Shown: positions 18,933 through 55,109 of the stretch, in pieces
Layout: every line of letters starts with the position of its first letter
How positions within the stretch are numbered: the stretch's first letter is position 1
Assembly: GCA_036502185.1 (NCBI GenBank)
Contig: DASXYZ010000002.1
Span: 2,688-66,687 of the forward strand
Direction: 5' to 3'
DNA from: Rhizomicrobium sp.
Lineage (GTDB): Bacteria; Pseudomonadota; Alphaproteobacteria; Micropepsales; Micropepsaceae
Length of the DNA stretch: 64,000 nucleotides
Position numbers and translations under genes: made by a program
The notes under the pieces: model-generated
What the model was told of the DNA's origin: nothing
Database searches by the model: none
The model's input: only the letters and a program-made list of their open reading frames with translations

Positions 18933-19009
18933 TGGCGGGAGCGACGGGGCTCGAACCCGCGACCTTCGGCGTGACAGGCCGACGCTCTAACCAACTGAGC
19001 TACGCCCCC
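18933..19009 (-). tRNA. tRNA-Asp (GUC)
   Basis: Cloverleaf GGGGGCG...TAGCTCAG..GTTCGAG..CGCTCCC-G-CCA; anticodon GTC. Confidence 0.96.
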
Positions 19010-19109
19010 GCGGGCGGCCTCGTTTCAGGAGGCGGCGCGATGTAGGGCCGCGAGGCTTTACGTGTCAAGGCGAAGCGAGGGAGCGCGCTTTGCTGCCGCG
19101 GATGCGGCC

Positions 19110-19541
19110 TCACGAGGTCGGCGGACGGCCGGGATGTAGTTCCTTCGACGTGAGCCGGCCATCGCCGTTCTTGTCGAGCTGGTCGAACAGCGAGCGCGGC
19201 GTGGCGGCGAACTCGTCGAAGTCGATGCAGCCGGTGTGCCGGAAGTCGATGAGCGGCGAGGCGGTCGAGGCGTCCGCCTTCCAGCGCGCCTCGTTGATCG
19301 GCCGAACTTCATCCGCGTCGAGGCAACCATCATGGTTTGTGTCGGCTGCGGCGAAATTGGCCCGCAAGCCCCGTTCCATTGCCGCGCGCGTCACCACGCC
19401 GGTGCGATCGGCATATTTCTCGAGCATTTCCGACGGCGGATGCCATTGCGGCGGGGGCGGCGCGCGATCGCCCGAACTGGCGCATCCGGCGGCGGACAAC
19501 ATGAGGCCGGCGCAGAAGACGAATTTTGAGGCGCGACTCAT
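19110..19541 (-). CDS. EF-hand lipoprotein
   Basis: Lipobox-like AAGC; loops DTNHDGCLDADE, DFRHTGCIDFDE, DKNGDGRLTSKE. Confidence 0.8.
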   Translation of the reverse strand: MSRASKFVFCAGLMLSAAGCASSGDRAPPPPQWHPPSEMLEKYADRTGVVTRAAMERGLRANFAAADTNHDGCLDADEVRPINEARWKADASTASPLIDFRHTGCIDFDEFAATPRSLFDQLDKNGDGRLTSKELHPGRPPTS

Positions 19542-19562
19542 CGGAACCAATTCCGCGGGTGC

Positions 19563-19638
19563 TGGTGGGCGGTGACGGGTTCGAACCGCCGACCCCTTCG
19601 GTGTAAACGAAGTGCTCTTCCGGCTGAGCTAACCGCCC
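19563..19638 (-). tRNA. tRNA-Val (UAC)
   Basis: GGGCGGTTAGCTCAG...TTTACAC...GGTTCGAA...CCGCCC-A-CCA; anticodon TAC. Confidence 0.95.
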
Positions 19639-29921: not shown

Positions 29922-32684
29922 TTACCCCAGCCGCGCTACCGCTTCGGTGAGGCGGGCGGCGAGACCTTCGGCATCGGCGCGGCGCTGCTTCTGCTCTTCG
30001 ATCACCTCTTCGGGCGCGCGCGCCGCGAAATCGGGATTGCCGAGCTTCGCATCGATCTTCGACACTTCGCTCTTCGCGCGCACGAGTTCCTTCTCCAGCC
30101 GCGCGCGTTCCTTCGCGAGGTCGATGACATCGCCGAGCGGCAGCGCCGCCACTGTTTCACCCACCACAAACTGCGCGGCAGCCGGCGGCACGGCACCGGC
30201 GAATTCGATCGAGGCGAGCCGCGCCAGCGTCGTTATCGGTTCGCGATTGCGGGCGAGACGGTCACGCGTTGCCGCATCTGCGCCGGCAAGCACGAGCGCG
30301 ATTCGCGCTGAAGCCGGAACATTCATCTCCGTGCGCACCGAGCGCACGCCGGAGACGAGGGCGATCACCCATTCGATCTCCGCGCGCGCTTCTCCGTTCG
30401 GAGGAACGGAAATTTCCGGCCATGGCGACACGAGCAGAAGCGAACTGCGTCCCGCCGTGCGCCCCCACAGCTCCTCCGTGACGAACGGCATGAAGGGATG
30501 CAGCAGTCCCAGAATGCGATCGTGCACAAAACCGGCCGTCGCGCGGGTTTCCGCAGCCTGCGCCGCATCGCTTCCGGCGAGGATCGGCTTGATCAGTTCG
30601 AGATACCAGTCGCAGAAGCGCGACCACACGAACTGATACGCGGCGCCCGCCGCTTCGTTGAAGCGCAGCTGCTCGAGATATTGCGTGATCTCGCGCGAGG
30701 CCTGTGCCGCTTCGGCGAGGATCCATTTATTTACGGTCAGTTTGACCGCGGCGGGTTCGAAACCAGCGGGCGCTTCGCAGCCATTCATTTCGCAGAAGCG
30801 GGCGGTATTCCAGAGTTTAGTGGTGAAATTGCGATTGGCCTCGACGCGCGATGGGCCGATGCGCATGTCACGCCCCTGCCCCGCTGCGAGCGCCAGCGTG
30901 AAACGGAGCGCGTCCGCGCCGAATTCGTCGATGAGCACCAGGGGATCGACCACATTCCCCTTCGTTTTCGACATCTTCTGCCCTTTTTCGTCGAGCACGC
31001 GGGTGTGAATGAACACGGTGTGGAACGGCACCTCTCCCATGAAATGCAGCCCCATCATCATCATCCGGGCGACCCAAAAGAAGATGATGTCGAAACTCGT
31101 GACCAGCACGTCCGTCGGATAGAATCGCGCGAGTTCGGACGTTTTGTCCGGCCAGCCGAGCGTTGAGAACGGCCACAGCGCGGAGGAAAACCAGGTGTCG
31201 AGCACGTCAGGATCGCGCCACAAGAATATCGTGCGATTGTCCTGTTTCATCTCCTCAATAACGTCATCATTGAACAGGTCAGCTTCCGATGAAAGTATTT
31301 TGACGGGCTTTTTATAAAATATATGAGCCTCGGCTCTGGCGGCATCCTCTGACTCGGCCACAAACATCTTGTTGCTTCCGCGTTCATTTCCGAATGCATA
31401 TGGAATTCGATCGTCGCGCACCATGGGCCCATACCACATCGGAATCTGGTGGCCCCACCACAGCTGGCGCGAGATGCACCAGGGCTGGATGTTGCGCAGC
31501 CAGTTGAAATAGACGTTTGCCCACTGCGCCGGCACGAAACGCGTGCGGCCCCCCTCCACCGCGGCGATGGCTTTCTCGGCGAGCGGCCGCACGTCGAGAT
31601 ACCATTGCTCGGTCAGATAGGGTTCGAGCACGACGGTTTTGGTTTTCTCATCGTGCGGCACCGCGTGCACGATCGGCTCGGTGCGTTCGAGAAAACCGAG
31701 CCCCTCCAGATCCGCGAGCACGGCCTTGCGCGCGGCGAAGCGGTCGAGGCCGCGATAGGGTTTGGGCACGGACTCGTTCAGCCGTCCGTCGCGTTCCAGA
31801 ATGTTGAGAAGCGGCAGGTTGTGGCGGCGGCCCACCTCGAAATCGTTGAAATCGTGCGCCGGCGTGATCTTGACGGCGCCCGTTCCCTTCTCCGGATCGG
31901 AATGTTCATCGGCGATGATCGGAATGCGCCGGTTCGCGAGCGGCAGCACGACGTGCCTGCCGACCAGTTCGCGATAGCGGCCGTCTTCTGGATGCACCGC
32001 CACCGCCACATCGCCGAGCATGGTTTCGGGCCGCGTCGTCGCGATGACAATGCAGCGCTCTGCCTCGCCCTCGATCGGATATTTGATGTACCAGAGATGC
32101 CCCTTGACCTCGATGTTTTCGACTTCGAGGTCGGAGACCGCCGTTTGCAATCGCGGGTCCCAGTTGACGAGGCGGTTGTCCTTGTAGATCAGCCCTTCGC
32201 GATGAAGCTGGACGAACACTTTGGCGACCGCGCGGCTCAGTCCTTCATCCAGCGTGAAACGCTCGCGCGACCAGTCGCAGGAGGCGCCGAGGCGGCGCTG
32301 TTGCTCCACGATCGCGCCGCCCGATTCTTCCTTCCATTTCCAGACCTCGCGCAGGAATGCCTCGCGCCCGAGACCGATCCGGCTTTGCTGGCGCTCGGCG
32401 AGGCTCCTCTCGACCACGAGTTGCGTGGAAATGCCCGCGTGATCGGTGCCCGGTTGCCAGAGCACGTCCTTCCCGCGCATCCGCTCGAAGCGGGCGAGGA
32501 TGTCCTGTAGCGTGTTGTTGAGTGCGTGCCCGATATGGAGGCGGCCCGTCACGTTGGGCGGCGGGATCATGATGCAGAAGGGCTGAGCCTCAGGCCGATA
32601 GCCCGCGCGGAACGCGCCCGACTCTTCCCACAGGCGGTAGATGCGCCCCTCGACGTCGCGGGGCGAAAAGGTCTTGTCGAGCAT
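29922..32684 (-). CDS. valS: Valine--tRNA ligase
   Basis: PPPNVTGRLHIGHA (HIGH), WCISRQLWWGH, DVLDTWFSS, KMSKTKGN (KMSKS-like). Confidence 0.98.
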   Translation of the reverse strand: MLDKTFSPRDVEGRIYRLWEESGAFRAGYRPEAQPFCIMIPPPNVTGRLHIGHALNNTLQDILARFERMRGKDVLWQPGTDHAGISTQLVVERSLAERQQSRIGLGREAFLREVWKWKEESGGAIVEQQRRLGASCDWSRERFTLDEGLSRAVAKVFVQLHREGLIYKDNRLVNWDPRLQTAVSDLEVENIEVKGHLWYIKYPIEGEAERCIVIATTRPETMLGDVAVAVHPEDGRYRELVGRHVVLPLANRRIPIIADEHSDPEKGTGAVKITPAHDFNDFEVGRRHNLPLLNILERDGRLNESVPKPYRGLDRFAARKAVLADLEGLGFLERTEPIVHAVPHDEKTKTVVLEPYLTEQWYLDVRPLAEKAIAAVEGGRTRFVPAQWANVYFNWLRNIQPWCISRQLWWGHQIPMWYGPMVRDDRIPYAFGNERGSNKMFVAESEDAARAEAHIFYKKPVKILSSEADLFNDDVIEEMKQDNRTIFLWRDPDVLDTWFSSALWPFSTLGWPDKTSELARFYPTDVLVTSFDIIFFWVARMMMMGLHFMGEVPFHTVFIHTRVLDEKGQKMSKTKGNVVDPLVLIDEFGADALRFTLALAAGQGRDMRIGPSRVEANRNFTTKLWNTARFCEMNGCEAPAGFEPAAVKLTVNKWILAEAAQASREITQYLEQLRFNEAAGAAYQFVWSRFCDWYLELIKPILAGSDAAQAAETRATAGFVHDRILGLLHPFMPFVTEELWGRTAGRSSLLLVSPWPEISVPPNGEARAEIEWVIALVSGVRSVRTEMNVPASARIALVLAGADAATRDRLARNREPITTLARLASIEFAGAVPPAAAQFVVGETVAALPLGDVIDLAKERARLEKELVRAKSEVSKIDAKLGNPDFAARAPEEVIEEQKQRRADAEGLAARLTEAVARLG

Positions 32685-32921: not shown

Positions 32922-33485
32922 TCAGCGCCTGAACCGTGACCGTGCGGCGCGGGCGAGTTCGTTCTTGACTGCGGTTTCAAGCATCGCGGGAAAATGTTCA
33001 TCGAGCCAGTCACGGATCACCGGTTTCATGTGGCCCAGCATGGTTCCGCTATTGTTTGCGAGCCATTTCTCAAGCGCCGGCTCGAAGGCTTCCCGCACCG
33101 CGCGCTCAAATGTGGCCTGCACGGACTCTCCCACCGGCGCGCCGGCTCCGTGGTGCTTGCTCGCCGCGCTGTCTTCCGGTTCGAAACCGGAGAAGGTTTC
33201 CTCGGCCGCGGCGCGCGCCTGCTCCGAAAACAGGCCGTCGCCATCATCTGCCGATGCCGGCGCGCTCTGTGGCAACCCGCGCACGTCGTGGTGTTCATGG
33301 CAATTCGCGGGGCTCTCCGAGCCTGGCGAAGGCGCCACTTCATGCACTTCCTGCGTCAGGTCGAGCACCTCGCCCTCGCCGTTCGGAGCGGAAGCCTGAG
33401 AGGCTGAAGGCGTATCTTCCGAGATGATCTTGCGGATCGAGGCCAGGATTTCCTCCATCGTCGGTTCGTGCTGGGGATTGGACAT
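32922..33485 (-). CDS. popZ: Polar organizing protein PopZ (DUF2497)
   Basis: N-terminal EPTMEEILASIRKII, acidic Pro-rich linker, C-terminal KP.IRDWLDEHFP.MLE.AV..EL; adjacent to valS. Confidence 0.9.
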   Translation of the reverse strand: MSNPQHEPTMEEILASIRKIISEDTPSASQASAPNGEGEVLDLTQEVHEVAPSPGSESPANCHEHHDVRGLPQSAPASADDGDGLFSEQARAAAEETFSGFEPEDSAASKHHGAGAPVGESVQATFERAVREAFEPALEKWLANNSGTMLGHMKPVIRDWLDEHFPAMLETAVKNELARAARSRFRR

Positions 33486-33597
33486 CGATTTGCTCCGGCG
33501 CGGCCCGCGCCCGCGCGCGGAAAACCCTAGAATAGTTGCAGAAAGAAGGAAAGGCGCGGTTAACATTCGAAAGCGTGGAGCCGCGCCCGCTCGGCGA

Positions 33598-34251
33598 TCA
33601 GAAGACGAATCCCGCAGGCGCGCGGAACCCGGCGAGCACCTGCGCCGAGGCATCGAACGCCATCCGCCGCCCCACCTTCCCGTATTCCTTCAGATAAAGC
33701 ATCGCGTGGCCCTGCGGTTCGTAGTGCAGGATGCCTACGAGGCGGCCGCCTTCGGCCAGCTGCGCGAGCAGCCGCTCCGGCTCCTGCTCCATGGCACCTT
33801 CGACCAGAATGACATCGTAGGGATTCTCCGCAGGATGGCCGTCCGCCAGCGCCCCCTGCACGATCTGCGCGTTGCCGACCTGCATTGCGTGCAGGCCTTC
33901 CGAAGCGATGCGCACGAGATCCGCATCCTCTTCGAGCCCAACCACGCGCCGCGCCAGCTTGGCGAGCACCGCGGTCGAATAGCCAGTGGTGCAGCCCACA
34001 TCGAGCACGTTGTCGCCCGGTGCGATCACCGCCAGCTGGACGAGCCGCGCGAAGGTCGCGGGCGCCAGCAGCCAGCGGCGGTTCACCACTTCCAGCGGCG
34101 CATCGGCGTAGGCGATGCTGCGTTTGTCGCCCGGCACGAAGCGCTCGCGCGGGATTTCGCCCATGGCATCGAGCAGGCGTTCGTCGGTGGCGCCGCCCGC
34201 AAGCACCTGCGAGGCGACCATGATCTGACGCTGGCGGGCGTAATCGGGCAT
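33598..34251 (-). CDS. pcm: Protein-L-isoaspartate O-methyltransferase
   Basis: RQIMVASQV, IPRERFVP, VLDVGCTTGYSTAVL, PYDVILVEG, QLAEGGRLV. Confidence 0.92.
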   Translation of the reverse strand: MPDYARQRQIMVASQVLAGGATDERLLDAMGEIPRERFVPGDKRSIAYADAPLEVVNRRWLLAPATFARLVQLAVIAPGDNVLDVGCTTGYSTAVLAKLARRVVGLEEDADLVRIASEGLHAMQVGNAQIVQGALADGHPAENPYDVILVEGAMEQEPERLLAQLAEGGRLVGILHYEPQGHAMLYLKEYGKVGRRMAFDASAQVLAGFRAPAGFVF

Positions 34252-34384
34252 TTTCCGCTTCTGTGATTGAATTCCCCGGGCGGCGGCGCTTATACGTTGC
34301 GGGCCGGGCGGTGACAACGCGAGAGGCGAAGCCGGTTTTTCGAATCGGTCAGGCCGGGGGCAACGCGGAAATCGGCAAGGGTTC

Positions 34385-34458
34385 GGCCACGTGGCGGAGT
34401 GGTGACGCAGCGGTCTGCAAAACCGTTTACCCCGGTTCAATTCCGGGCGTGGCCTCCA
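34385..34458 (+). tRNA. tRNA-Cys (GCA)
   Basis: GGCCACG...CTGCAAA...GGTTCAATTCC..CGTGGCC-T-CCA; 74 nt. Confidence 0.96.
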
Positions 34459-34484
34459 AACCTTGCTGAAAGATTCACGCCGCA

Positions 34485-34500
34485 TTAACGTTTGCTTAAC
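34485..34500 (+). promoter_or_regulatory. CtrA binding box
   Basis: TTAA-CGTTTGC-TTAAC is an exact TTAA-N7-TTAAC; extra TTAA at 34502-34505; -10-like TAGATT at 34511-34516. Confidence 0.75.
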
Positions 34501-34647: not shown

Positions 34648-34723
34648 TCCCCGGTAGCTCAGTCGGTAGAGCAAGCGGCTGTTAACCGCTGGGTCGCTGG
34701 TTCGAGTCCGGCCCGGGGAGCCA
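34648..34723 (+). tRNA. tRNA-Asn (GUU)
   Basis: TCCCCGGTAGCTCAG...CTGTTAA...GGTTCGAGTCC..CCGGGGA-G-CCA. Confidence 0.96.
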
Positions 34724-54214: not shown

Positions 54215-54291
54215 TGGTGACCCCGGCAGGAATCGAACCTGCGACCCGCTGCTTAGAAGGCAGCTGCTCTAGTCCGCTGAGCTACGGGGCC
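54215..54291 (-). tRNA. tRNA-Arg (UCU)
   Basis: GGCCCCG..TAGCTCAG..GCTGC-CTTCTAA-GCAGC..GGTTCGATTCC..CGGGGTC-A-CCA. Confidence 0.95.
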
Positions 54292-54417
54292 TGACGGGGT
54301 TCATCTATCAGCTATCCGCACCCGAAATCAAAGACAACAACGGCACGGTGCTCGCGCCTTTCCCGGCCATATTGGGTTTGCAACGTCAGTGTTTCATCTC
54401 GCTTTTGCGGTCTGTCC

Positions 54418-54658
54418 TTTCCTCCCCCGGCGCGAATGCGCTGGGGGAGGGGGACCGCGAAGCGGTGGAGGGTGTTCGCGATCGATGCGCGCGTTCTGGC
54501 CGGCCAAACTGTGTTACGCATCTCGCTCACTAGCCGGACCTTTGCGGCTCAAGAAACACGGGCCGCATGTGTAATCCAGCTGCGGCCGTCGCATTCTCGG
54601 CGGCAGGCCCCCTCCACCGCTTCGCGGTCCCCCTCCCCCGCCTTGGGCGGTGAGGAAA
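54418..54658. repeat. Palindromic REP/MITE-like element, same family as the nuoM insertion
   Basis: Ends TTTCCTC / GAGGAAA; long inverted match GGGAGGGGGACCGCGAAGCGGTGGAGGG vs CCCTCCACCGCTTCGCGGTCCCCCTCCC around a ~130-bp core. Confidence 0.85.
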
Positions 54659-54693
54659 ATGTGGGTCCGCACCGACGCTGCGATGACCGTCCG

Positions 54694-55002
54694 TCAATGC
54701 GTCCAGGGAATCTTCCGGTCGAAGCGAAAATTGTCGGAATAGGATTTGGGCCGGGCCTTGGACGGATGCGCATCGAAGACCTGATAGGGAATCTCGTGCC
54801 GCTTCGCGTAGGCGACCGCTTCCTCTTTGGTATCGAATTCGAGCACGACCTGGCTGCGCATGTCGTCGGAACTCGTCCAGCCCATGAGCGGCTCGACGGT
54901 GCGCGGCCGCTCCGGCTCGAACTCCAGCACCCAATGTTTGGTCAGCGCGCGGCCGGCCTGCATCGCGGTGCGCGCCGGGCGATAAATTCTCGCAAGCATC
55001 AC
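54694..55002 (-). CDS. ETC complex I accessory subunit (NDUFS4-like)
   Basis: ARIYRPARTAMQAG, W.LEFE, EPLMGWTSS.D...QV.L.F..KE.A, SYSDNF. Confidence 0.92.
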   Translation of the reverse strand: MMLARIYRPARTAMQAGRALTKHWVLEFEPERPRTVEPLMGWTSSDDMRSQVVLEFDTKEEAVAYAKRHEIPYQVFDAHPSKARPKSYSDNFRFDRKIPWTH

Positions 55003-55032
55003 GTCACCAAATAATCTTAAGTTCCGGCCGGT

Positions 55033-55109
55033 TGGTCGGGGCGGCGTGATTCGAACACGCGACCCTCTGCTCCCAAAGCAGATGCGCTACCAGGCTGCGC
55101 CACGCCCCG
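55033..55109 (-). tRNA. tRNA-Pro (UGG)
   Basis: CGGGGCG..TGGCGCAGCCTGGTAGCGC..TTTGGGA..GTTCGAATC..CGCCCCG-A-CCA. Confidence 0.96.

Follow-up and report, generated by a model that had tools for sequence, protein, structure and literature searches.

Why should an essential gene carry, within its reading frame, the lowest-GC stretch of the 64 kb of Rhizomicrobium DNA analysed here (the window)? The gene is valS, and aminoacyl-tRNA synthetases are the textbook example of slow evolution and vertical inheritance, for which they serve as phylogenetic markers. As judged from its ORF and translation valS (29922..32684, minus strand) is intact and specifies a protein of 920 aa possessing HIGH (H50-I-G-H53) and KMSKT (570–574) motifs, editing (CP1) and anticodon-binding domains and a C-terminal coiled coil. 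It contains PF00133 [tRNA-synt_1], PF13603, PF08264 [Anticodon_1] and PF10458 [Val_tRNA-synt_C] motifs, and Thermus thermophilus ValRS [9e-216, 1GAX] is its homolog by sequence as well as its top fold match. The product is a class Ia valyl-tRNA synthetase. Directly upstream, and outside the module discussed below, is a DUF2497-family gene (32922..33653, minus strand; PF10691), which is a syntenic neighbor of valS also found in relatives L031–L037.

The segment in question (31218–31424, minus strand) comprises codons 421–489 (MVRDD...TIFLW) and is flanked by RQLWWGHQIPMWYGP and RDPDVLDTWFSS. The initial annotation had described it as a low-GC cassette of 69 in-frame codons, of which 33 end in A or T, and this description holds: its GC3 is 0.52 (0.52–0.54 for the cassette and the replaced block defined below) against 0.79 in the rest of valS, and its overall GC is 0.46 versus 0.63. 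At 0.459 GC this 207-nt segment is the lowest stretch of the window (mean 0.635, sd 0.037), and the only equally low stretches of that length are those which overlap it. The 60-nt line 31260–31319 does have a GC content of 37%, as annotated. All of the reported codon counts (ATA, three; TCA, two; AGA and CGA, one each) were correct, and relative to genome usage ATA is enriched about 10-fold, TCA 7-fold and AGA 4-fold, while CGA, listed with them as atypical, is not enriched.

The GC3 check which had been proposed at that stage places the segment far below the gene-wide range. Even where valS is least conserved outside the cassette, GC3 is 0.71–0.72. Encoding the same amino acids with genome codon usage would give 0.68 ± 0.054, and amino acid composition is therefore not the explanation of the dip. 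Genome-wide, 5.8% of 69-codon windows have a GC3 of 0.52 or less, and the valS dip ranks 63rd among 2153 ORFs; ten higher-ranked internal dips which we inspected include the C-terminal tips of RHS-type toxins, what looks like a DNA methyltransferase gene, and ORFs whose calling is doubtful. An embedded regulatory or RNA feature was rejected, since a scan for such features revealed no inside terminator, promoter-like site or Rfam family at the site.

To what part of the enzyme does the segment correspond? In the alignment with 1GAX it falls into the gap between two HMMER blocks (query 420 to 488), bounded by residues 418 and 446 of the chain. In IleRS, CP3 is the piece which follows the CP2-3 linker "...RYWG", with CP2 on its one side and the second Rossmann half on the other (PMC7955072, PMC7191050). 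Judged by this position, the low-GC segment is the CP3 connective-peptide subdomain. Codons 419–489 contain no cysteine and hence do not specify a zinc-knuckle CP3 like those of T. thermophilus ValRS and IleRS, for which four Zn-ligating cysteines are needed, nor does the module carry any catalytic motif.

On its upstream side lies RQLWWGHQIPMWY (codons 406–418; 31431..31469, minus strand), the CP2-CP3 linker motif, which is nearly invariant across the family and might act as a recombination anchor; columns W409–W417 are invariant in our alignment (A1), and DNA identity to relatives extends to ...TGGTA(T/C) and stops there. The replaced block follows (codons 419–489, 71 codons; 31218..31430, minus strand). 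It contains the 69-codon core and represents a long-form CP3 module which we designate type A; it cannot be aligned with the 36-aa module of L032, the nearest relative by backbone, and is 47–67% identical at the amino acid level to five further modules of type A. On the downstream side RDPDVLDTWFSS (codons 490–501; 31182..31217, minus strand) marks the start of the second Rossmann half and might likewise serve as an anchor: D493–S501 are invariant in the same alignment, and DNA identity to relatives restarts at CGCGA(T/C)CC.

Within the block, comparison with the short forms distinguishes three parts, all on the minus strand. The first expansion, MVRDDRIPYAFGNERGSNK (codons 421–439; 31368..31424), is a lengthened beta-hairpin, which in the short forms (VWYDADGNxYVAETE...) amounts to only about five residues (D-x-D-G-N); AF2 models it, at lower confidence (pLDDT 62–74), as a loop and a short helix. 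The retained core, MFVAESEDAARAEAHIFYKKPVKIL (codons 440–464; 31293..31367), is a strand-helix-strand element recognizable in nearly all long and short forms, with the pattern FVAETExEA...A..(Y)YG..V common to nearly all of the 119 linkers compared below; the model places strands at 438–442 and 461–464 and a helix at 446–457 (pLDDT 86–91). The second expansion, SSEADLFNDDVIEEMKQDNRTIFLW (codons 465–489; 31218..31292), adds an extra helix and a closing strand which the short forms lack, with helices modeled at 467–471 and 473–481 and a strand at 486–490 (pLDDT 80–86), and its topology was unchanged when CP3 was folded alone. The type A module is thus predicted to be a compact, acidic beta-beta-alpha-beta-alpha-beta mini-domain, the full-length AF2 model being mediocre (mean pLDDT 73.6). 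Judging by its acidic charge and by what has been published on IleRS, CP3 presumably lies at the surface and would not contact tRNA. The isolated model found no fold match in the PDB (best E 1.7, TM < 0.3).

We compared the 119 closest ValRS sequences with a readable linker, from Rhizomicrobium and its relatives, all derived from MAGs and metagenome contigs. A conserved short CP3 of 31 or 36 aa is present in 79 of these (mean pairwise identity 55%), and a long one of 49–96 aa in the remaining 40, with a mean pairwise identity of 26% versus 18% for shuffled controls. The long forms fall into about 26 clusters at 40% identity, that is, into mutually unalignable types. Almost all of the variation in protein length resides here, the standard deviation being 3.4 aa for the backbone and 20 aa for the linker (linker versus total length, r = 0.99); the linker of the window's own gene is 77 aa. 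Scored by a match bridging the cassette, a CP3 longer than the short form occurs in about a quarter of the species genomes, in three genera of the family, and beyond the family each of the 12 alphaproteobacterial genomes which gave a linker had the 36-aa form. No such variation is seen in the CP3 of the paralogous IleRS from the same genus, which is 57–59 aa long, colinear, and has a GC3 of 0.66–0.88. As aligned here, CP3 of ValRS in the Rhizomicrobium family is hypervariable, with at least about 26 alternative long modules alongside the short one.

Two MAGs possess both a long and a short valS. The second one in G107, at just 66% identity, is by this measure a contaminant or else divergent; at 90–93% identity, the pair in G138 suggests that two related organisms were co-binned. 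Neither proves polymorphism of CP3 within a population.

How did so many versions come to occupy one site? One might have expected ordinary vertical divergence, CP3 being a fast, indel-prone loop which drifts in each lineage without exchange, and CP3 does differ in topology and length among the IleRS and ValRS of distant taxa, as the 28-aa Zn knuckle of 1GAX illustrates. The close relatives tell otherwise. Unrelated modules sit on backbones that are 93–98% identical, and in 25 pairs backbones at least 93% identical carry cassettes at most 29% identical. In DNA alignments L033 (85 aa) and L034 (36 aa) are 97–100% identical in their flanks up to the breakpoints, with the replacement lying exactly between TGGTA and CGCGATCC; L035, L036 and L037 carry three unalignable long modules between flanks which are mostly 90–98% identical; and the window and L032 show the same breakpoints as L033 and L034. 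These breakpoints coincide with the two invariant motifs WWGHQIPxWY and RDPDVLDTWFSS. The initial annotation had envisaged a swapped hypervariable module in an essential enzyme and had suggested aligning valS from close relatives; that alignment bears it out, with non-homologous cassettes between the same two breakpoints.

The window's gene is itself a mosaic. Its flanks are nearest to the short-form gene of L032 and its cassette to those of L029 and L038; although the backbone groups within the short-form genes, the module on it is a long one of type A. Modules of this type are found on five distinct backbone lineages, and constraining them to one clade was rejected (delta lnL 1017, p-AU 5e-46) in an AU test for which the group was chosen after the tree had been seen. 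Long and short states change at least 15 times on the large backbone tree, which was built with FastTree only. Among cassette pairs at least 40% identical, cassette identity is always below that of the backbone, and part of the discordance could arise if cassettes stay put while the backbones around them recombine.

Within a type dN/dS is 0.09–0.15, and dN is 1.4–2.2 times that of the backbone. Such purifying selection marks the module as a functioning component of the enzyme rather than junk. The initial annotation had further raised the possibility of diversifying selection, of which these values give no sign as an ongoing process within types. By the same estimates, this within-type divergence does not explain why the types cannot be aligned, and evolution at a dN/dS near 0.1 would not be fast enough to make modules unalignable in near-identical strains. 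Unrelated modules on near-identical backbones, together with the AU test, refute vertical divergence for the family as a whole, and we regard it as highly improbable for the window's gene. As far as these comparisons go, CP3 modules are replaced whole, and the type of module conflicts strongly with the phylogeny of the remaining enzyme; CP3 has both the sharp common breakpoints and the segment-backbone discordance of a mosaic segment shuffled by recombination. We therefore favor, with a probability of roughly 0.85, the reading that the segment is a type A CP3, one of many swappable ValRS modules exchanged by recombination in the Rhizomicrobium family. The exchange would proceed by homologous recombination of the ordinary kind, with the conserved flanks as anchors.

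Does the low GC content then identify a donor? A recent horizontal acquisition from a foreign low-GC taxon, phage or plasmid, its composition still un-ameliorated, would account for the sharp compositional edges and for the segment being the lowest-GC stretch of the window, and would sit well with a backbone nested among short-form genes. The nearest known relative of the cassette is, against this, only 64–71% identical in DNA. A word-index search with the cassette returned only the query itself, and exhaustive phmmer against 1.84 billion representatives, a set whose 50% clusters may conceal long-form ValRS, found no homolog outside ValRS, its single hit being a low-complexity repeat protein and spurious. 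Plasmids and a metagenome scan yielded no donor; 50,697 phage records held no match to the cassette, a result which is silent on phage proteins that might bind CP3. In the word-index, phmmer and metagenome searches no donor was found for the cassette of this gene, nor any sequence nearly identical to it. These results do not support the recent date which the initial annotation had assigned to the swap.

The composition of the other modules also speaks against it. GC3 is low in all nine long modules for which DNA is available, whatever their type or host (on average 0.26 below the rest of the gene, versus 0.07 below for short modules), which argues that low GC is a standing property of the long modules and not a sign of recent foreign origin. 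The one module type so tested kept a GC3 of about 0.5 over a dS of 0.6–1.5, time enough for amelioration. A foreign donor is for these reasons an unlikely source. Somewhat less likely still is that the low GC3 has been selected as a cluster of rare codons which pauses translation at the boundary between CP3 and the Rossmann fold and so aids the co-translational folding of long modules. The 4- to 10-fold over-representation of ATA, AGA and TCA and the restriction of low GC3 to long modules are what one would look for; the depression, though, spans the whole 70-codon module and not a defined pause site, and the short forms meet the same boundary without low GC3. The most plausible cause, in our opinion, is that non-homologous modules would escape the force which raises GC3 elsewhere, be it GC-biased conversion or codon selection.

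An essential alphaproteobacterial gene with an AT-rich insertion in its reading frame also brings to mind mobile or self-diversifying elements, namely a translated MITE, a repeat like the Rickettsia palindromic element, an intein remnant or the target of a diversity-generating retroelement (DGR). Blastn and tblastn searches of the whole 3.14-Mb genome returned only the self-match, that is, no second DNA or peptide copy which would betoken a repeat family or a template repeat, and there are neither terminal repeats nor meaningful inverted repeats. A translated RPE- or MITE-like element, which should exist in multiple copies, was rejected for its single copy. An intein or mini-intein (at least about 130 aa, with a Cys/Ser start and a His-Asn end) was likewise rejected: the block has 71 codons, begins GP-M and ends FLW-R, and the extra 41 aa are far below intein size and lack the Cys/Ser...HN boundary residues. 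As for a DGR variable region, there is no second genomic copy, and the variation is not adenine-specific, the variants differing as whole modules in length and throughout their sequence. We consider this class of explanation the least probable of all.

What drives the diversity of the exchanged modules is less certain. The reading to which we lean, at a little under even odds, is that CP3 is a structurally permissive site at which old variants are shuffled through frequent interspecies recombination. A more tentative proposal is that CP3 serves as the docking surface of an antagonist (phage factor, toxin or inhibitor) and that the modules represent an escape polymorphism kept up by negative frequency-dependent selection. 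The antagonist might be a widespread phage-encoded modifier of ValRS, or a toxin or inhibitor protein which targets the synthetase. Phage T4 encodes a valyl-tRNA synthetase modifier, Vs, a phage protein able to target bacterial ValRS. To our knowledge Vs is the only precedent for such an antagonist, and we know of none for CP3 of ValRS; Vs belongs to the E. coli/T4 system, and its link to Rhizomicrobium CP3 is speculative. Were the proposal true, a cytoplasmic housekeeping enzyme would harbor an "immune-type" variable region, an unrecognized battleground at the translation apparatus through phage takeover of ValRS or toxins, and CP3 would offer a concrete site for tests. If the diversity is neutral, nature has cleanly tested how much arbitrary sequence the core of a synthetase can accommodate, which is of use in engineering insertion sites.

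Whatever the cause, CP3 of ValRS behaves as one would expect of a surface antigen's variable region. A single family of soil bacteria harbors upwards of 25 unrelated versions, which are conserved after they have arisen and pass between strains that are 97–100% identical in the rest of valS, an unusual state of affairs for a housekeeping enzyme. A full-text literature search, which did locate definitions of CP3, found no published description of CP3 cassette exchange in ValRS. The low GC3 of non-homologous modules within a high-GC gene provides a rare natural test of biased gene conversion versus codon selection. On the practical side, CP3 should be masked in valS trees and MLSA schemes for the Rhizomicrobium group.

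The CP3 modules described here occupy the same position as those of other class Ia synthetases (1GAX ~418–446; IleRS, PMC7191050, PMC7955072), between the CP2-3 linker (..WWGH or ..RYWG) and the DxWF(S/D)S strand of the second Rossmann half. Known CP3 domains of IleRS and ValRS are likewise small strand/helix modules whose topology differs between distant species. Relative to 1GAX, the modules of the Rhizomicrobium family lack the Zn-binding cysteine knuckle, and the long forms gain a helix and a strand. The 15–60 extra residues of these long forms, which occur in a free-living alphaproteobacterial family, gave no fold or homolog that could be recognized. The known differences lie between distant taxa, whereas in this family there are dozens of unrelated versions which near-identical strains exchange. 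In this respect CP3 resembles the mosaic segments of other proteins, namely the central domain of flagellin, pilin, the variable regions of outer membrane proteins and the C-termini of polymorphic toxins, of which the RHS tips of this very genome are an example. With these it shares anchors in conserved flanks, many deeply divergent alleles, discordance between the trees of segment and backbone, and a GC content lower than that of the surroundings. The difference is that those segments belong to surface or secreted proteins with obvious antagonists (immunity, phages which use them as receptors, competitors), whereas ValRS is a cytoplasmic housekeeping enzyme.

The valS gene (29922–32684, minus strand) is intact and specifies a 920-aa valyl-tRNA synthetase (ValRS) which possesses the full Pfam set and matches Thermus thermophilus ValRS 1GAX (E 9e-216); its closest relatives are labeled Rhizomicrobium sp. 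or Alphaproteobacteria. Translation places codons 421–489 (31218–31424, minus strand), a segment singled out in the initial annotation for its base composition, between RQLWWGHQIPMWYGP and RDPDVLDTWFSS. The figures given there proved correct on recount: 33 of the 69 codons end in A or T, the rare codons are ATA (three times), TCA (twice), AGA and CGA, and one 60-nt line has 37% GC. The window has 63.5% GC and the genome assembly (88 contigs, 3.14 Mb) 62.9%; within the window no 207-nt stretch has a lower GC than the segment, which lies 4.7 sd below the mean and has a GC3 of 0.52 versus 0.79 for the rest of valS. Neither amino-acid composition (expected GC3 0.68 ± 0.054 for the same residues at genome codon usage) nor low conservation (the least conserved valS sites elsewhere keep 0.71–0.72) accounts for this. 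Genome-wide the dip ranks 63rd among 2153 ORFs. Of ten higher-ranked internal dips that were read, some belong to the C-terminal tips of RHS-type polymorphic toxins and some to dubious ORF calls, so that the valS dip stands out among housekeeping genes. Several such RHS-type genes lie outside the window (C57:12672–16050 and C42:100839–105759 of this genome); their conserved core ends in DPxGL, and their tips, with GC3 of 0.27–0.40 versus 0.67–0.79 for the gene, form some of the genome's largest internal GC3 dips.

The HMMER alignment to 1GAX falls into two blocks, one ending at residue 420 of the window's ValRS and the other beginning at 488; the equivalent residues of 1GAX are 418 and 446, at the Thermus zinc knuckle. 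In IleRS structures CP3 is the piece after the RYWG of the CP2-3 linker and before the second half of the Rossmann fold (PMC7955072, PMC7191050). Since the alignment gap coincides with this position, the segment is the CP3 subdomain of ValRS.

Other identities were rejected. The cassette has no second copy in the genome, as a MITE or RPE-like repeat would, and is likewise single-copy with no template repeat for a diversity-generating retroelement (DGR). An intein would be far longer and would have boundary residues that are absent here. No flanking repeats were found, nor any promoter-like site, terminator or Rfam match within it. Sequence searches revealed no homolog outside ValRS, and neither phages and plasmids nor a metagenome 8-mer scan yielded a similar sequence.

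In most protein matches from the first 30 related genomes the alignment is interrupted between residues ~420 and ~485. Where a linker could be extracted, a CP3 of 31 or 36 aa (VWYDADGNxYVAETEAEALAEAR...LTRDP) occurs in most genomes of the genus and in 12 of 12 from outside the family. Four genus genomes, the window's included, have 75–77 aa instead, in three sequence types, one shared by the window and locus L029 and one each in L002 and L003. Of the 119 closest ValRS proteins with a readable linker (from 5.8 billion searched), 79 have short and 40 long forms (49–96 aa). Mean identity is 55% between short forms and 26% between long forms (shuffled control, 18%), and the latter fall into ~26 clusters at a 40% threshold. 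The sole part common to nearly all forms is a strand-helix core (FVAETExEA..A..YYG..V), extended in long forms by a variable hairpin on its N-terminal side and a variable stretch on its C-terminal side. The backbone, that is, ValRS minus CP3, has a length sd of 3.4 aa and the linker 20 aa, so nearly all length variation lies in CP3. In a survey of the order, which covered one family and eight genera, a cassette-bridging match, which indicates a longer-than-short CP3, was found in about a quarter of the species genomes and in three genera.

Two of these loci call for comment. In L029 (G005:C4:79255–81917), whose cassette is the one most closely related to the window's, valS is spread over multiple reading frames and interrupted by in-frame TGA stops; it is either a pseudogene or the product of an error-prone assembly. 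A single MAG (G138) carries two valS copies, L068 (C203) and L069 (C158), with flanks 90–93% identical and CP3s of 96 and 31 aa; these are probably two related organisms binned together.

CP3 modules are exchanged and not inherited together with valS. A backbone tree, built with CP3 removed, requires at least 15 changes between long and short states, and 25 pairs have backbones 93–98% identical with CP3 modules just 14–29% identical. L033 (85-aa CP3) and L034 (36 aa), from sister metagenomes, are 97–100% identical over ~1.8 kb upstream of CP3 and 100% immediately downstream; in the DNA alignment everything between ...GTCTGGTA and CGCGATCCCGAC..., the complete module, is replaced. Loci L035, L036 and L037, whose flanks are mostly 90–98% identical, each bear a long module that cannot be aligned with the other two, inserted between the same pair of breakpoints. 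L032, a short-form locus and the window's closest relative by backbone, has flanks 82–93% identical to the window's and differs from it at these breakpoints as well. The window's backbone groups with short-form genes P0002–P0004 (100% support, 88% identity), and its module is colinear, at 47–67% identity, with those of G005/L029, P0027, P0048, P0028 and P0077 (type A). Five separate backbone lineages carry type A modules; constraining these to one clade cost 1017 log-likelihood units (p-AU 5e-46, the group having been named after seeing the tree). In sliding windows the window's flanks are nearest L032 and its cassette nearest L029 and L038. The proposal of a swapped hypervariable surface module was thus supported by comparison of relatives, in which unrelated modules occupy common breakpoints in near-identical genes.

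The order PCMT methyltransferase, DUF2497 protein, valS (32922–34485, minus strand, for the first two) is kept across the family, while the genes downstream of valS differ between the window and L031–L037; the DUF2497 gene itself has indels between close relatives. Two tRNA genes (34385–34455 and 34648–34720, plus strand) lie just upstream of this block, and four more at 18936–19638 and 54218–55109.

Low GC characterizes long modules as such and does not date their acquisition. In all nine long modules with DNA, GC3 lies 0.14–0.36 below that of the gene (mean −0.26), the mean difference for 27 short modules being −0.07. For one long type there are three copies (L002, L064, L065), separated by dS of 0.6–1.5; because L002, the sole copy measured, nonetheless has a GC3 of 0.48, the composition looks like an equilibrium. 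Modules without a homologous pairing partner might escape the process that raises GC3 elsewhere, perhaps GC-biased conversion, perhaps codon selection linked to conserved sites.

The long modules are functional protein. In this same type dN/dS is 0.09–0.15 versus 0.08–0.09 for the rest of the gene, and dN is only 1.4–2.2 times higher. While the AlphaFold model of the whole ValRS (88-sequence alignment) is mediocre (mean pLDDT 73.6), CP3 is confident (80–91, residues 441–490); it has no fold neighbor in the PDB. Every CP3 form is acidic (net charge −1 to −9), which argues against direct binding to an RNA backbone.

Evolution within types is slow and constrained, yet the types are mutually unalignable; they may therefore predate the family by far or have come from unsampled sources, or alternatively they may have arisen in bursts of indels with positive or relaxed selection. 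As to the driver, a phage Vs-like modifier or a toxin, as first suggested, is an attractive candidate. Alternatively, CP3 diversity may be neutral, a permissive loop being shuffled: three further tracts of the L033/L034 valS 3' half (alignment columns 2300–2800, 3200 and 3600) are at 85–91% identity, so interspecies recombination is frequent in valS beyond CP3.

The paralog IleRS served as control: in 24 genus genomes its CP3 is 57–59 aa, colinear, with GC3 of 0.66–0.88. Elsewhere in IleRS the match breaks around residues 232–238 of the G000 protein in L059, L060 and L061 (G032, G035 and G033), with ~30 extra codons in G032 and G035 and two pieces on different contigs in G033; unlike the invariant IleRS CP3, this may be an insertion specific to certain lineages, close to where the editing domain begins. 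In the literature we found CP3 nomenclature and no description of intra-family exchange of CP3 cassettes in ValRS. Differences in CP3 topology between distant species are already known from IleRS structures (PMC7955072, PMC7191050); here CP3 is a variable connective-peptide insertion behaving as a recombining mosaic segment.
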